15,866 bases of DNA, from positions 1 to 15,866 of the forward strand of contig JBGQMB010000022.1 of NCBI GenBank assembly GCA_041500405.1. Reading direction: 5' to 3'. A program made the position numbers and the translations under genes. Of the stretch, positions 4,461-15,417 are shown piece by piece. Source of the DNA: Candidatus Micrarchaeia archaeon. Lineage in GTDB: Archaea; Micrarchaeota; Micrarchaeia; Anstonellales; J096. The notes beneath the pieces were generated by a model, which did not search any database, was not told where the DNA came from, and saw nothing but the letters and a program-made list of their open reading frames with translations. The first letter of the stretch is position 1, and each line of letters opens with the position of its first letter.

Positions 4461-5483
4461 CTAGCCGCCGGGCTGGTATCTCAGGTCATTTTGGACGTAT
4501 TTGATGCAGCTGTCGCGCGCCTCGTCGTTAATGAGCTTCCTGCATATGGACATGTTCCTGGTGACAAGGCCCAGGCACTGCAGCCTGTACTGCTCGTCAG
4601 ATATATGGTTGCATGCGTCCTCGTCGTCGTTGGAAATCCCGTATCCCTGGATGCACAGGTCTATCTTCGTTTCCTTGCTCTCAATGGCGCAGCTGAGATC
4701 GCACTCCATGTTTTGGCATTCATGCCAGTCATTGAGTATTTCTGCGCGGCAGATGTATGTGTCAAGTATGCGCATGCGCCCGCTGCAGGCGGAAATGTTG
4801 CCTGTCATTTCTGCGACATCTATAAGGCAGTTCTCCTCAATCCACATGGTGTCGTTGAAGTATCCCCTCAAGCCTTTGCAGACATTGGGATCGTTTTCAA
4901 CAACTGCAAGGTCTCGGATGCAATCATAAAGGAGGGATGCGTTGGGCTCTGATCTTGAAACGTACTTTCGCTGCGGAATGAACGCCGAACAGTTTCGCGC
5001 GACCGCGTCAGCTATCGCCGGAGGCGCGTCATTGGCGTTGTAAATCGTGATGTTGGTCTTTGCCATTATTATTCCCAAGGAACCCCTTATCGCGACAACC
5101 TGTATAGTATAGTTCCCTGCGGCAAAACCATGATACTGCTGGATTCCCATTTCAGTGACTGCGGCCGGGGGCGGCTGCGCGGTGAAATTCTCGTTGACAG
5201 GGACAACAACGCTTCCGTCTAAGCTGACAAGCCTGAAGCCGTAAACGGTCCCGTTCGGCAGGCCCCGCTGTACAGGATAGAACCACTGCTGGGACTCAAC
5301 CAAGGTAATGTTCCTGTTGTTGGTATCAACAACATAAACAGTGACATACGGGCGGATGGATTCAGAGAATGTGAGATTGTATGCCGCCGGCGGGGCCTGA
5401 AACGCGTCAAGGATGCCGCAGCATCCTAAAGCGAGTGCTAACAGGACAATTGAAACCGCAACCAGCGGGCTTTGCAAAGCCAT
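4461..5483 (-). CDS. Membrane-anchored or secreted protein with beta-rich N-domain and C-terminal Cys-rich helical repeats
   Basis: Signal/lipobox-like LLALALGCC, N-glycosylation sequons and about five C....(A)....D...C..I repeats. Start reassigned to ATG 5483 because a TTTTAAA box sits at 5506-5512 and the ATG at 5543 is box C' of the sRNA. Confidence 0.75.
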   Translation of the reverse strand: MALQSPLVAVSIVLLALALGCCGILDAFQAPPAAYNLTFSESIRPYVTVYVVDTNNRNITLVESQQWFYPVQRGLPNGTVYGFRLVSLDGSVVVPVNENFTAQPPPAAVTEMGIQQYHGFAAGNYTIQVVAIRGSLGIIMAKTNITIYNANDAPPAIADAVARNCSAFIPQRKYVSRSEPNASLLYDCIRDLAVVENDPNVCKGLRGYFNDTMWIEENCLIDVAEMTGNISACSGRMRILDTYICRAEILNDWHECQNMECDLSCAIESKETKIDLCIQGYGISNDDEDACNHISDEQYRLQCLGLVTRNMSICRKLINDEARDSCIKYVQNDLRYQPGG

Positions 5484-5516
5484 AATCCGATTTTTGGGCA
5501 TTCTGTTTAAAACTGC

Positions 5517-5574
5517 TGCCTCAGACCGCACGTCACTCATCATGAATCAGAGATCACCTTTGTCATCATGGGCA
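5517..5574 (-). ncRNA. Box C/D 2'-O-methylation guide sRNA (double guide)
   Basis: Minus strand reads tgcc-c-ATGATGA-caaaggtgatct-CTGA-ttc-ATGATGA-gtgacgtgcggt-CTGA-ggca. This gives perfect boxes C, D', C' and D, two 12-nt guides and a 4-bp terminal stem. Both guides are complementary to conserved 16S rRNA segments. Confidence 0.95.
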
Positions 5575-5596
5575 AGGATAATGTTTGGGCGAACAA

Positions 5597-5603
5597 TATA
5601 TAA
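5597..5603 (-). promoter_or_regulatory. TATA box of the C/D sRNA
   Basis: TTATATA located 23-29 nt upstream of the sRNA 5' stem, matching archaeal TATA-to-TSS spacing. Confidence 0.7.
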
Positions 5604-5740: not shown

Positions 5741-6808
5741 TCAAACTAGCCTGAAAATTCCCCTGCCAATCTCGGAAAGCCTTCCGCCCAGGACCGACGT
5801 GGTTATCTGGATGAATGTCATCATTATGGCGAACGCCGCGAACGGCGTCAGGCACATCGTAATCATCGTCGATGAGATGGCGTCTATGAAATAGCCGGAA
5901 ACGCCCCCCAGGATGTATTTCACGGTAAACACGGCCACGCGCGCTGACGTATATATGAAATTGAACGGAAGCGCCACCGGGTTGTCCAGCGCTATGCCGA
6001 ATGAATCCTCGGCGCTGCCTATGCCGGCAACGTCGTTCAGCTCGCCGGAAACCTTGCAAAGCTGGTCGCTGTCATGGTAAAAGTTCCCAAGCATCATCAT
6101 GTATGCTATGGGAAACACAAGCATCGCTCCGATGCCCATCGCTATAAGGAAAGCCCCTGATGTCCTTGTCGGCGCAAACGCCCGCAGGCCTATGCCAACG
6201 GCTATCAGGACCGGGCCAAATGCGTTCATGAACGCAAGCACCTTGACAGTGAAAACCAGCAAAATGTACGCATTGAGCGACTGCAGGTAAAGGTTTTGGA
6301 ATGTCGTGACGAATGCGTCCGTAGGCGCCCCCGTAATATCAAGGTTGGCGCCATGTATGCCGTAAAGGCCGCTGAACATCGAATAAAACATTATCATGGA
6401 CTGCATGTACTTTTCCATGCACCCGCGCACGTTTTCGCTGTAAAGTATCTCCGCGACAATCTGGGAGGGAGAGACTGAGCAGCCTATGATGTTGTGGGCG
6501 CATGAATCTATCTCTGATTGGAAGGCCTGGTCCCCAAACGACATCTGATGGTATTCCATCACGCTCTGTGCGTACAGCACGCCGAAATAGTTGCCGAAAG
6601 CCAGGATCGGAACGAACAGCAGGACTGCAAGCGCGACGTTGAGCGCGGCCTCGAGCAGCTCGCCCTTTACCATCTTTTCAGCTTCCGCCAATTGGAAAAA
6701 CTTTGAGACCTGGTAAAGTATCGCCGCCCCTATCACGCCGATTATGGAAAGTATTATTGTTACTGTCTGCCATGAAAGTGTTGCCGTTACTGCCTGCCAT
6801 TGATCCAT
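5741..6808 (-). CDS. Polytopic membrane protein, paralog 6 of 6 (CedA/VirB6-like motifs)
   Basis: Multiple TM segments. Family motifs ILYQVSKFF...KMVKGELLE, GIGLRAFAPTRTSGAFLIAMGIGAMLVFP and C-terminal LGG......IFRLV. Confidence 0.8.
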   Translation of the reverse strand: MDQWQAVTATLSWQTVTIILSIIGVIGAAILYQVSKFFQLAEAEKMVKGELLEAALNVALAVLLFVPILAFGNYFGVLYAQSVMEYHQMSFGDQAFQSEIDSCAHNIIGCSVSPSQIVAEILYSENVRGCMEKYMQSMIMFYSMFSGLYGIHGANLDITGAPTDAFVTTFQNLYLQSLNAYILLVFTVKVLAFMNAFGPVLIAVGIGLRAFAPTRTSGAFLIAMGIGAMLVFPIAYMMMLGNFYHDSDQLCKVSGELNDVAGIGSAEDSFGIALDNPVALPFNFIYTSARVAVFTVKYILGGVSGYFIDAISSTMITMCLTPFAAFAIMMTFIQITTSVLGGRLSEIGRGIFRLV

Positions 6809-6809
6809 G

Positions 6810-8168
6810 TCATATCAGCCTCGAAAGGTTGGACACGTCTATTTCCTCGCCGAGCGTGGACGACATGTACTTGACCCCGTTTATCAGGATTATGCTTACT
6901 ATGAGGGGATATATTGTGCCTCCGAAGCACAGCACCCCTCCGCCCGAGGAAAGCACCATTATCTGGAAAACTACTGCAATGGAGGATAAAAGCATGGAGA
7001 AAAGCTTTGCAATGAACCACGGCTCGTTGGCCACGCTCGCCGTTGTCTCATAACGTGTCCCGCCGTCTGGTGTTTCAGCTGTTGCCTCATTGAGATGGGT
7101 ATCCTGCAATGACGCCGTCTCGGCATTGGCCATGGACAGCGCCGCAAACCTGCCCGAAAGCTCGCTCATGCCGTTTTCCAAGATATGGGTGTTCGCGCAT
7201 ATTTCCGTGCCTGGCACCTTAAAACAGCCTTGCTGAAGGCCGGCTGAGCCGCTTATGTCATAGTAAAACGGGAAATAGCCCTTTGCTATCACGCTATGCC
7301 CTATGGCGAACATGAACGGCACAAGGATGCCCATTCCGAACGTGAGCGCTATGATGGTTCCGCCTATGCGGCGCGTGGGCGGGAAGAAACGCAACACCAG
7401 GCCCAGCGGAAGCAGATATACCATGAAGCCATATGTTACAAATTCGTGAAGATATGCCATCAACGATGCCAGCGCGGATGTGACAACAATCGCCATGCCG
7501 GCGGTTGACGACGTTCCGAGCGTGGCATCCTCGCTTGCGGCCCCGAACCCCCCTGCGGACTGCACAAACACATTTTGGACCACCTGTATCCTGAGTATCA
7601 GGTTCTGGCCAACGGCATTGACAAGGTAAAGGCCGATGCTGAACGGCGTTAGGGATGCCAAGATGTCCTTTGGATAGGCAAATGCGGCCTCGTATGTCGT
7701 GGTTCCGGGCTCAAACACGTTGTAGCACCCTATTACCTTCATCATCGGAAGAAGGATTATGAGGACCACGAATATGGTTATGCCCATCTCAAGCAGCTCG
7801 TTCTTGGCATATTCAACCCATTTCTTGTTGTCCATTATCTTCCCGAGGATGAAAACGAACGCAAGGAACATCGCGCCGGCAACGGCCGCAAGCGCAGAAA
7901 GCGAGAAAATCTCGGCCTTAAACACAACGGTGTCAAGAAGAGAATTTCCGGTGGAGGCGCACATCGCATCATTCATGAGCGCATGCCCAGGGAGAGGAAG
8001 CACTGATGCCGCCACAGTAGACATTATTTTGTCCATAAGGCTTGCATATGCATCGGACACTATGCCAAAAGAGCCGGAGCCAAATGGGTCCGCCTGCGCG
8101 AATGCCGCGCATGCCATAGCCAGGAAAACCGCCGACGCCACAAGCCACTTTCCCTTTGCCATCATCAT
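6810..8168 (-). CDS. Polytopic membrane protein, paralog 5 of 6, with signal peptide
   Basis: Signal peptide ending AFA|Q. Motifs FILGKIMDNKKWVEYAKNELLE, LPLGLVLRFFPPTRRIGGTIIAL...VP and C-terminal LGEEIDVSNLSRLI. TGATG overlap with the upstream gene; alternative start GTG 8171. Confidence 0.8.
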   Translation of the reverse strand: MMMAKGKWLVASAVFLAMACAAFAQADPFGSGSFGIVSDAYASLMDKIMSTVAASVLPLPGHALMNDAMCASTGNSLLDTVVFKAEIFSLSALAAVAGAMFLAFVFILGKIMDNKKWVEYAKNELLEMGITIFVVLIILLPMMKVIGCYNVFEPGTTTYEAAFAYPKDILASLTPFSIGLYLVNAVGQNLILRIQVVQNVFVQSAGGFGAASEDATLGTSSTAGMAIVVTSALASLMAYLHEFVTYGFMVYLLPLGLVLRFFPPTRRIGGTIIALTFGMGILVPFMFAIGHSVIAKGYFPFYYDISGSAGLQQGCFKVPGTEICANTHILENGMSELSGRFAALSMANAETASLQDTHLNEATAETPDGGTRYETTASVANEPWFIAKLFSMLLSSIAVVFQIMVLSSGGGVLCFGGTIYPLIVSIILINGVKYMSSTLGEEIDVSNLSRLI

Positions 8169-9481
8169 CACAGTATCTTCATGAATGCGCTCAGCTCTAT
8201 CTGCGTCCCCAGTATCCCGGACAGCTCCCTTGCGAACATGAGAGTCGCGAATATGTCAATGGCTGTCAATATCATGCCGTAAAGCGCTATCAGCTTGACC
8301 AGGAAAAGGATTACCCCGTACGTGCCCTGGAACAGCGTTGTTGCCATGAACGTGACGTATGCCAGCACCCAGAATGACGAGTATTTGGACATTACTGTCA
8401 CAAGGTTGACCATCCCCCCTGTCGCTTTTGCGAACCATGCGGAGATGGCCGGCATGTTCTTGGTGAAAAAGTCTGGCATGCCGGATTTCACAAGCGGCAC
8501 GACAGCGGCCGTGCCCCCCAAGGTCATTTTCAGCATAAGCGGTATGGCCGCGAACTTCATGTACATTGCCGCGGAACTGAGCACATTTGTGGAAAATGTT
8601 TCTGAATCAAGCCCCATGTCCACGTTGAATATGGCATAGTTCATTGTGAGCATTATGGGATAGAAGAAATGCAATGCTATGCAGAGCGCAATTATGCCGT
8701 TGCCCGCGCCTTTGCCTATGCCGAACCCCCTAAGGAAGAACCCGAGCGGGAGCATCACGTAGAACATTGACGAGCGGACGAAGCACAGCAGGCCCAGCTT
8801 CGTTATGAATTCCCCGACAACGAGGTTGGAGTATGTGCTCAATATGGTCACGAGCGTTACCACGGGGCTCAGTATCTTGTCAAGGCTTATGCTCATCATC
8901 CTGCTCCCGACCTGGGACAGGACGTCAAGCGGTATGGTGATATTCATCATGAAGTGCATCATCCAGTTCATGACCATCATGAAAAAGTAGCTGTTTACAG
9001 TCAGCGAAATCACCGTAGAGACATATTCCATGCCCCTTAGCAGGGGTATATAGTCCGGCCCGCCGGACCCGAAATACGCTAGCGCAATGAGCACTATGAT
9101 GATTATGCTGACCAGCGAGTCCGTTATCTTGAGCGAGATGAAGCTGGATGGCTGGACGCCTGACGTGTCCTTGCGCAGCATCTTGCCGATGAAATACAGG
9201 ATGACGGAAAGCAGGAAAGACACCAAAACCGCCATTATCGAGGACTGCACCAGCGAAAGGCTATACCAATCCGAAATGCCTCCATAAGAGGCTGCGGGCG
9301 TGCACATGCCTATCGAGCCCGCCAAAACGATGAATGTGCTTTTGCCGATATAGTTGTCTATCACGCTCTGGAATAGGTGGGATATGAAATTATCCGAGTC
9401 TTCCGCTGCCGCCTCCTGCGCAAAGGCTGCGCAGGCCGCGAAAAGCGCGAACGCAACCAAGACAATTCCCTTTTTCATCAT
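8168..9481 (-). CDS. Polytopic membrane protein, paralog 4 of 6, with signal peptide
   Basis: Signal peptide ending AFA|Q. Motifs LPLGFFLRGFGIGKGAGNGIIAL...YP and C-terminal LGTQIELSAFMKIL. ATGA overlap with the upstream gene. Confidence 0.8.
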   Translation of the reverse strand: MMKKGIVLVAFALFAACAAFAQEAAAEDSDNFISHLFQSVIDNYIGKSTFIVLAGSIGMCTPAASYGGISDWYSLSLVQSSIMAVLVSFLLSVILYFIGKMLRKDTSGVQPSSFISLKITDSLVSIIIIVLIALAYFGSGGPDYIPLLRGMEYVSTVISLTVNSYFFMMVMNWMMHFMMNITIPLDVLSQVGSRMMSISLDKILSPVVTLVTILSTYSNLVVGEFITKLGLLCFVRSSMFYVMLPLGFFLRGFGIGKGAGNGIIALCIALHFFYPIMLTMNYAIFNVDMGLDSETFSTNVLSSAAMYMKFAAIPLMLKMTLGGTAAVVPLVKSGMPDFFTKNMPAISAWFAKATGGMVNLVTVMSKYSSFWVLAYVTFMATTLFQGTYGVILFLVKLIALYGMILTAIDIFATLMFARELSGILGTQIELSAFMKIL

Positions 9482-15048: not shown

Positions 15049-15417
15049 TCACTCACCTTTCTTCTCGGGCTTAGGCAACCTTTTGCTTATGCTTGAGAGA
15101 AGGTCGTTTCCTGACCCGGCCTCTACGACTGCTATTGATGAGCATCCGACCTTGATTCCGGAAGCCTCGCCGAGCTCCTTTTTCGTGTTCACGTGGCCGA
15201 AGGAAATCCCCTTCTCCGCGCAGAGCTTTGGCAGGTGCATCACGACCTCGGGCGGCGTCACGTCCTGTGCGATGACAACAACCTTGGCGATGCCCCTTTC
15301 GATGGCTTTCGTTACCTCGTTCACGCCCCTCCTGACCTTTCCGGTGCCGGAGGCTACTTTCACTAACTCGAGCAAATCCTTTTTCACTTCCTCTGGTGTT
15401 TCATATTTTTCTGCCAT
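15049..15417 (-). CDS. rpl7ae: 50S ribosomal protein L7Ae (also core protein of box C/D and H/ACA sRNPs)
   Basis: GKVRRGVNEVTKAIERGIAKVVVIAQDVTPPEVVMHLPKLCAEKGI...KKELGEASGI. ATG 15417 follows the GAAGGTGG RBS. Confidence 0.98.
   Translation of the reverse strand: MAEKYETPEEVKKDLLELVKVASGTGKVRRGVNEVTKAIERGIAKVVVIAQDVTPPEVVMHLPKLCAEKGISFGHVNTKKELGEASGIKVGCSSIAVVEAGSGNDLLSSISKRLPKPEKKGE

Follow-up and report, generated by a model that had tools for sequence, protein, structure and literature searches.

The 16S rRNA nucleotide C1402 (E. coli numbering) is 2′-O-methylated in bacteria by the protein RsmI, and yeast snR70 and human SNORD43 are guides for Cm1402 that pair with their target without interruption. 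Among archaea, uninterrupted pairing through CCC1402–1404, with the same nucleotide at the N+5 position, characterizes Ignicoccus sR11 (PMC5389701) as well as the Thermoplasmatota and Desulfurococcales sRNAs presented below. The D guide of Pyrobaculum sR25 (Lui et al. 2018, PMC6009581) is directed to 16S C1368, which corresponds to E. coli C1402, and carries a mismatch at N+5 that is conserved in six species, which the authors take to indicate that the interaction is beneficial without modification. A second related system is N. equitans sR13 (Dennis et al. 2015, PMC4644070; Seistrup et al. 2016, PMC5389701), which pairs with 16S positions 1405–1415 and 1531–1540 and guides Am1408 and Am1534; both methylations were measured, and no mismatch is reported for it. 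A role in the timing of 30S folding has been proposed for sR13 (PMC4644070; PMC5389701), and it has been put forward as an RNA-based substitute for the RsmA/Dim1 checkpoint (PMC5389701). RiboMeth-seq in the same study detected Cm1402 in N. equitans, for which no guide was identified, and Cm1533 in I. hospitalis.

The sRNA described here is encoded within a 15,866-nt stretch of DNA, hereafter the window, which represents contig 22 of a Micrarchaeia archaeon assembly (916 kb, 60 contigs, 86% complete; genome G000). Like sR13, it is a DPANN double guide whose two guides bracket helices 44 and 45: one occupies the upper end of helix 44, on its 5′ strand, and its partner the anti-Shine-Dalgarno tail. 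The register is distinct, however, since the window sRNA addresses 1398–1409 (C1402) and 1529–1537 (C1533), has a conserved mismatch at N+6, and its methylation sites are predicted, whereas those of sR13 were measured. With sR25 it shares the 16S strand, and the sR25 core GACGGACGG (PMC6009581) recurs unchanged in the guide variant of nine Micrarchaeota genomes of family f16. The sR25 mismatch, an A opposite C1402, is located at N+5 rather than N+6, and the D′ guide of sR25 targets 16S C1328 (their numbering) instead of the 3′ tail; the sR25 hosts are Thermoproteota hyperthermophiles, and the two RNAs are comparable by their 12-nt guides only, as the D′ guides differ.

A double-guide box C/D sRNA on the minus strand of the window

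The relevant features of the window are as follows.

5516–5575, minus strand: whole box C/D sRNA with its inferred terminal stem (ends inferred)
5563–5569, minus strand: C box AUGAUGA (DNA ATGATGA)
5551–5562, minus strand: D′ guide CAAAGGUGAUCU (DNA CAAAGGTGATCT), pairing with 16S AGAUCACCU, N+5 at C1533
5547–5550, minus strand: D′ box CUGA (DNA CTGA)
5544–5546, minus strand: D′–C′ loop UUC (DNA TTC), 3 nt, replaced in relatives by inserts of up to 139 nt
5537–5543, minus strand: C′ box AUGAUGA (DNA ATGATGA), whose ATGs create a spurious long start of the open reading frame (ORF) 4461–5543
5525–5536, minus strand: D guide GUGACGUGCGGU, 10/12 pairs with 16S 1398–1409, N+5 at C1402
5521–5524, minus strand: D box CUGA (DNA CTGA)
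5595–5603, minus strand: TATA-like element ttatatatt, 25 nt upstream of the C box, a putative promoter element
15100–15375, minus strand: gene for L7Ae, the K-turn-binding core protein of C/D RNPs (PF01248, E 1.8e-25, 88.3 bits)

Read on the minus strand, positions 5521–5569 have the complete box layout of a textbook archaeal box C/D sRNA, with an RUGAUGA C box near the 5′ end, a CUGA D box near the 3′ end, internal D′ and C′ boxes and two spacers of 12 nt each. This agrees with the original prediction, which had called a box C/D sRNA at this position with a D guide complementary to ACCGCACGUCAC; at 5525–5536 the plus strand indeed reads ACCGCACGTCAC and the minus strand GTGACGTGCGGT. By eye, UUGCC (5575–5571) and GGCAG (5520–5516) can form a K-turn-closing terminal stem of 4–5 bp that leaves C5570 unpaired, and G013, a genome of the same genus, has the same stem. 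In the G013 copy the upstream catttatgcttatatatt element is kept and the downstream flank is different, so that the sRNA looks like a separate gene. The host encodes all three core proteins, namely L7Ae in the window itself and, from profile searches of the genome, fibrillarin (E 6e-80) and Nop5 (E 7e-43). Judged from the sequence, window positions 5516–5575 (minus strand) thus probably encode an independently transcribed double-guide box C/D sRNA that docks on the 16S rRNA.

At gathering score, a search of the window against Rfam returned no hit, placing the sRNA outside any curated Rfam family, and a permissive search retrieved generic C/D families below cut-off only (sR1 at 28.0 bits with a cut-off of 45, sR2 at 28.2 bits with a cut-off of 42). 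Our literature search found no earlier description of box C/D sRNAs in Micrarchaeota. The sRNA is a new, uncurated member of the box C/D class, and its mismatched decoding-site guide has published precedent. With a strict pattern, only five C/D sRNAs are found in the host genome. A search for sequencing runs listed ten from sediment DNA and none of RNA.

The downstream ORF 4461–5543 (minus strand) begins at the ATG of the C′ box, but a likelier start is the ATG at 5501 in the same frame, after which the N-terminus is hydrophobic and, by eye, resembles a signal peptide. Neither ORF 4461–5501 (346 aa) nor the neighbours 5741–6808 and 6810–8171 were assigned to a Pfam family.

The D guide is mismatched to a canonical decoding-site strand

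The D guide can be laid on 16S 1398–1409 (own nucleotides 1361–1372) with 10 of 12 positions in Watson-Crick pairs, arranged as five plus five around a U·C mismatch at N+6 (C1403), directly adjoining C1402; a G·A non-pair follows at guide position 12 (A1409). Among the 16S rRNA, the 23S rRNA and the 37 tRNAs of the host (7207 nt) this is the best match of the guide, and the N+5 rule points to C1402, as had been proposed. The mismatch at 1403 had been noticed before and is real, although it was taken to be the sole discrepancy, the second one at position 12 having been missed.

To account for the mismatch, the original prediction suggested that the 16S rRNA of this organism carries C1403A, which would make the guide match at that position and would place a mismatch in the target of the universal primers 1391R/1392R. 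However, the only full-length 16S copy of the assembly (C9:2828–4321, 1413 bits) reads ACCGCCCGUCAA / CACACACCGCCCGTCAAGTC / CACACACCGCCCGUCAAGUC along the decoding strand, with canonical C1402, C1403 and C1404 and an A at 1409, which is the very outcome that had been named as speaking against the idea: a canonical cognate rRNA and a guide that is simply mismatched. The decoding strand is also canonical in G002, G013, G014 and G015. A phylum-wide search with the pattern GCACACACCGNNNGUCA matched 179 of 401 genomes; among the 150 listed 16S rows (34 further rows lie outside the list), 130 have CCC, 20 have CCU and none has A at 1403. Moreover, each of the 62 genomes with a U in the guide at this position that has a listed 16S row has C1403. 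The guide sequence alone speaks for C1403A, and for the assembled rRNA gene this reading can be discarded with near certainty, together with the primer mismatch derived from it. The odd base is in the guide, and the rRNA is canonical.

In the CCU rows a decoding-site base of high conservation varies naturally: C1404U (CCGCCUGUCA) occurs in 20 of the 150 listed 16S rows, for example in G004, G018, G142, G172 and many genomes of family f13.

Could the D guide be meant for another RNA? In a scan of the whole assembly its sole perfect complement is the sRNA gene itself, as is also the case in G014, G293, G294 and G360, and the perfect 12-nt target elsewhere that had been raised as a counter-indication is thus absent from the host assembly. 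With up to one mismatch, the scan returns a single further site (C10:12338, 11/12 matched), which is antisense to an ORF, and about 0.4 such matches would be expected by chance in 1.8 Mb. A wobble-tolerant 10-mer scan, in which the D guide hit well over a hundred sites and the D′ guide dozens, was uninformative. The other candidate, nucleotides 1053–1064 of the 23S rRNA (ACCGUACGUUGG), offers eight Watson-Crick and three G·U pairs without a mismatch, including a U6–A pair, at −15.6 kcal/mol, equal to the 16S site. The N+5 position would be a G·U pair there, however, and the 23S segment is variable: in a comparison of the host with ten relatives that have U opposite C1403 (three of them also with U at position 8), full pairing is retained in only 3/11 (G000, G013 and G119). 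Nor does the 23S site covary with the guide variants GGA, AGG, GAG and GGG, whereas the invariant guide positions 9–11 match the invariant 16S nucleotides U1406–A1408. A true target outside the 16S rRNA is very improbable.

Taken by itself, a match of this quality says little. When 3000 random 12-mers were compared with the rRNAs and tRNAs of the host (7207 nt), 497 reached 10/12 Watson-Crick pairs including N+5 and 216 reached nine contiguous pairs, and single guide matches are therefore weak evidence. By contrast, none of 3000 random guide pairs placed both hits within 150 nt of each other on one RNA. Relative to the strict published criterion of nine contiguous Watson-Crick pairs including N+5 (PMC4644070), the D guide falls short with its five plus five pairs around the U·C mismatch. 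Set beside a relaxed rule for double guides (at most one mismatch, partner site within about 100 nt), it has a G–C pair at N+5, a partner site 122 nt away and the extra non-pair at position 12.

The D′ guide pairs with the 16S rRNA 3′ tail

The second guide, whose match had been overlooked before, forms nine contiguous Watson-Crick pairs with AGAUCACCU (own nucleotides 1483–1491, E. coli 1529–1537), placing C1533 at N+5. With 122 nt between them, the two targets lie on either side of helices 44 and 45, and only the D′ guide has the uninterrupted run of at least nine pairs spanning N+5 that is regarded as methylation-competent by Dennis et al. 2015 and Lui et al. 2018. Going by this pairing, it rather likely directs Cm1533, although in most relatives the D′ pairing extends over 7–8 bp only. 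The GGUGAUC core of the D′ guide is found in 57 of 59 distinct members, and the heptamer formed part of no search pattern. In the host family the 16S rRNA has A1529, opposite which the D′ guide places its last U.

With respect to the tail itself, own nucleotides 1478–1494 (on contig C9) read GGAUAGAUCACCUCCA in the host family (5/5 read), the usual form being CUGGAUCACCUCCU. In 50 of 57 members the D′ guide has an A at position 10, facing C1538, where a G would lengthen the duplex to cover the complete Shine-Dalgarno complement; the A resembles a second conserved block to further pairing. In the orthologues from genus g5 (L008–L010) the D guide is kept and the D′ guide is another sequence of 11 nt, CACGUACGACU, for which a search of the rRNAs gave no convincing target, the best being seven contiguous pairs at 16S AGUCGUA (1493–1499).

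The non-pair is conserved across Micrarchaeota

We searched 401 genomes for the D-guide family with guide positions 3, 6, 8 and 12 and the positions of the breaks left free, and found the sRNA in 82, whereas a reversed control pattern gave no hit, a distribution that is not due to chance. The sRNA is present in 9/16 genomes of family f1, 53/76 of f6, 9/21 of f16 and 0/94 of f12. A hand tally of the 82 guides gave the following.

U opposite C1403: 62/82 genomes, 58 of them with the exact core UGACGUGCGG
A opposite C1403: 3/82 genomes
A opposite C1402 itself: 9/82 genomes, all in family f16
A opposite C1404: 4/82 genomes
GGG kept, mismatch at C1400: 4/82 genomes
Fully complementary guide: 0/82 genomes

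A non-pair is therefore located opposite C1402–C1404 in 78 of 82 genomes and opposite C1400 in the remaining four, a conservation of the kind seen in sR25, here at N+6 and not at N+5. The core UGACGUGCGGU is identical in 58 genomes. Seven families of the order gave hits, and these genomes represent at least six of them, plus f35 outside the order. Among named genome contigs, a guide with U opposite C1403 occurs in 93 stretches, of which 80 were read; 59 of these also have the C box and the GGUGAUC D′ guide, nearly all of them titled Micrarchaeota or one of its orders, while about 11 of the stretches come from bacteria and match by chance. The guide core is kept amid freely diverging flanks and inserts, and guide positions 9–11 are invariant in 57/57 members, matching the invariant U1406–A1408 of the 16S rRNA.

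Where the rRNA changes, the guides change with it. G004 has U1404 in its 16S rRNA and an A at guide position 7, and a second sRNA of the lineage (see below) has the guide sequence GAUGAC where the 16S rRNA has GUCAUC (G000 and G013) and GGUGAC where it has GUCACC (G002 and G014). Since the guides of this lineage track the 16S rRNA, the persistent non-pair is not sloppiness. The same observations bear on the idea of a decaying or orphan guide, in which the mismatch would reflect neutral drift in a reduced genome. Guides from genera g2–g6 do contain two or three non-pairs, with energies down to −11 kcal/mol, and other guides of the host genome likewise pair imperfectly with their targets. However, UGACGUGCGGU is retained in 58 genomes and in 59 further named metagenome-assembled genome (MAG) contigs that have GGUGAUC in the D′ guide, against a background of diverging flanks and inserts, and a single mismatch fixed so widely is not expected from drift, which makes decay a very improbable explanation.

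Uninterrupted guides do exist in other archaea. A search for the uninterrupted core GACGGGCGG gave 25 hits (L209–L233), 21 of them archaeal. One of these is from a Micrarchaeota MAG and the other 20 are from euryarchaeal MAGs, mostly Thermoplasmatota, DHVE2 and Aciduliprofundum; these D guides form 9–10 bp centred on C1402 and belong to canonical C/D sRNAs. In a 14-mer scan of genome contigs, one Desulfurococcales MAG sRNA with a perfect guide was found among the matches listed, the rest being swamped by chance hits in bacteria of high G+C content. Unlike these Cm1402 guides, the window-type sRNA was never seen with GACGGGCGG in the 82 genomes.

Further observations concern the members of the family. 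On the contig L251, titled Pirellulales bacterium, there is an sRNA of the Micrarchaeota type that is complete and has both the insert and GGUGAUC in its D′ guide; the contig is probably a mis-binned archaeal contig. In most f6 relatives (L019–L047 and L234–L313) the 3-nt D′–C′ loop is replaced by an insert, typically of 74–139 nt. The fold predicted for it by RNAalifold from 26 members (alignment A1) has an outer helix and two hairpins, one with a conserved GUCA loop and one of GGG/CCC; in the alignment of the whole sRNA, 14 of 30 predicted pairs show compensatory changes, all inside the insert. The inserts share the conserved motifs CUAAGC and GGCCAC and have no Rfam hit, and the motifs have no complement in the host rRNAs at up to one mismatch.

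A second sRNA bridges the same two 16S regions

Outside the window, the host genome contains a second C/D sRNA (C21:76–123, plus strand) that bridges the decoding site and the 3′ tail. Its D guide GAUGACUUGACU forms 11 contiguous pairs with 16S 1405–1415 and predicts Am1408, as for Neq sR13, and its D′ guide GAGGUGAACCU pairs with UCACCUC at 1532–1538 (−11.5 kcal/mol). Within the order, 58 of 141 genomes have an sRNA of this type (f1 17/18, f2 35/42, f6 2/64), and it covaries with 16S position 1414. It is a closer counterpart of Neq sR13 than the window sRNA.

In N. equitans RsmA/Dim1 is lacking, whereas the host of the window has it: a full-length PF00398 match is located at C2:1286–1909 of the host genome (E 9.6e-46), and 19 of 19 genomes of the host family give a PF00398 hit, strong and full-length in 16. 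A replacement of RsmA/Dim1 of the sR13 type was therefore rejected for the host.

Methylation, pairing and release

On the pairing, the chance that the D guide directs Cm1402 with a mismatch next to the site is slightly below even. The G–C pair at N+5 in 73 of 82 genomes, together with the Cm1402 measured in N. equitans, favours a Cm1402 guide that tolerates a neighbouring U·C mismatch. Efficient methylation, however, reportedly depends on an ideal A-form geometry close to the modified nucleotide (Appel and Maxwell 2007, cited in PMC7089733), which counts against Cm1402, and where the mismatch falls on C1402 itself, as in nine genomes and in Pyrobaculum, methylation is ruled out.

It is also quite conceivable, albeit the less favoured outcome, that the D guide acts by pairing only, as a non-methylating placeholder or chaperone on the P-site strand with the D′ guide on the 3′ tail, the mismatch serving to block Cm1402 or to allow release. 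The break within or next to CCC1402–1404 is universal, with no perfect guide in 82 genomes, and falls on C1402 itself in nine genomes and in all six Pyrobaculum sR25 members. In addition, the second sRNA (C21:76–123) likewise spans from the decoding site to the 3′ tail, and double guides of this kind have been suggested to act as chaperones or checkpoints (PMC4644070; PMC5389701). Set against this, the G–C pair at N+5 in 73 of 82 genomes would be unnecessary if methylation were selected against, and Cm1402 exists in N. equitans and, at below 50%, in I. hospitalis (PMC5389701).

A further class of function would leave one cytidine unpaired for a stand-alone base-modifying enzyme, in the manner of snR4, snR45 and SNORD13. 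SNORD13 pairs with the 3′ region of 18S rRNA. Box C/D snoRNAs with an unpaired cytidine guide ac4C formation by Kre33/NAT10 (PMC5464676; PMC9670809), and the host genome has two genes for RsmB/F-type m5C methyltransferases. A search for the NAT10/TmcA-type acetyltransferase domain (PF13718) in the 86%-complete host genome, however, gave no hit, and the unpaired cytidine varies by lineage (1400, 1402, 1403 or 1404), so that no single base is consistently exposed; guidance of a base modification appears highly improbable.

For the double-guide sRNA as we read it, the sequence of events could be envisaged as follows. The sRNA, together with L7Ae, Nop5 and fibrillarin, would dock on the 16S rRNA as it is being made, at two elements of its 3′ minor domain that are single-stranded and contact mRNA, with the D guide on the decoding-site strand at 1398–1409 (C1402 at N+5) and the D′ guide on the 3′ tail with the anti-Shine-Dalgarno sequence at 1529–1537 (C1533 at N+5). 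The mismatch may be kept because a perfect, G+C-rich duplex of 11–12 bp would be too stable to be released from the strand that later forms the decoding site.

The computed duplex energies, −15.8 kcal/mol for the real D guide and −23.9 kcal/mol for a perfect one, with all natural mismatch variants between −11 and −17 kcal/mol, fit selection for a releasable duplex, although the fit is imperfect. Four of the six other variants are found at −15 to −17 kcal/mol, and guides with a GGG core are computed at −15.0 (genus g2) and −11.0 kcal/mol (genus g3). The idea of tuned stability is weakened by the Thermoplasmatota sRNAs and the one Micrarchaeota sRNA that have a perfect GGG core at about −22 kcal/mol, and by guides with U opposite C1403 in MAGs whose isolate codes, judged from titles only, resemble those of hot springs.

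Implications for 30S assembly in Micrarchaeota

The immediate consequence is that a false lead is removed, as the decoding site contains no exotic base and creates no primer blind spot. The window sRNA and its relatives instead represent a candidate guide class for Cm1402, a modification for which no sRNA was identified in N. equitans (PMC5389701). A broader view, which we regard as speculative and rather unlikely, is that archaea as distant as Micrarchaeota and Pyrobaculum keep a deliberately imperfect P-site guide, which in combination with an anti-Shine-Dalgarno guide would act as a reversible mask of the mRNA-binding elements, an assembly checkpoint selected for pairing strength and not for methylation. 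A genome with about five guides keeps two sRNAs that bridge the decoding site and the 16S 3′ tail, and one of them avoids perfect pairing with the ribosome's most conserved CCC in all 82 carriers. Micrarchaeota may thus offer a testable case for the view that, in some archaeal C/D RNPs, selection during 30S assembly acts on binding and release and not on the methyl group.
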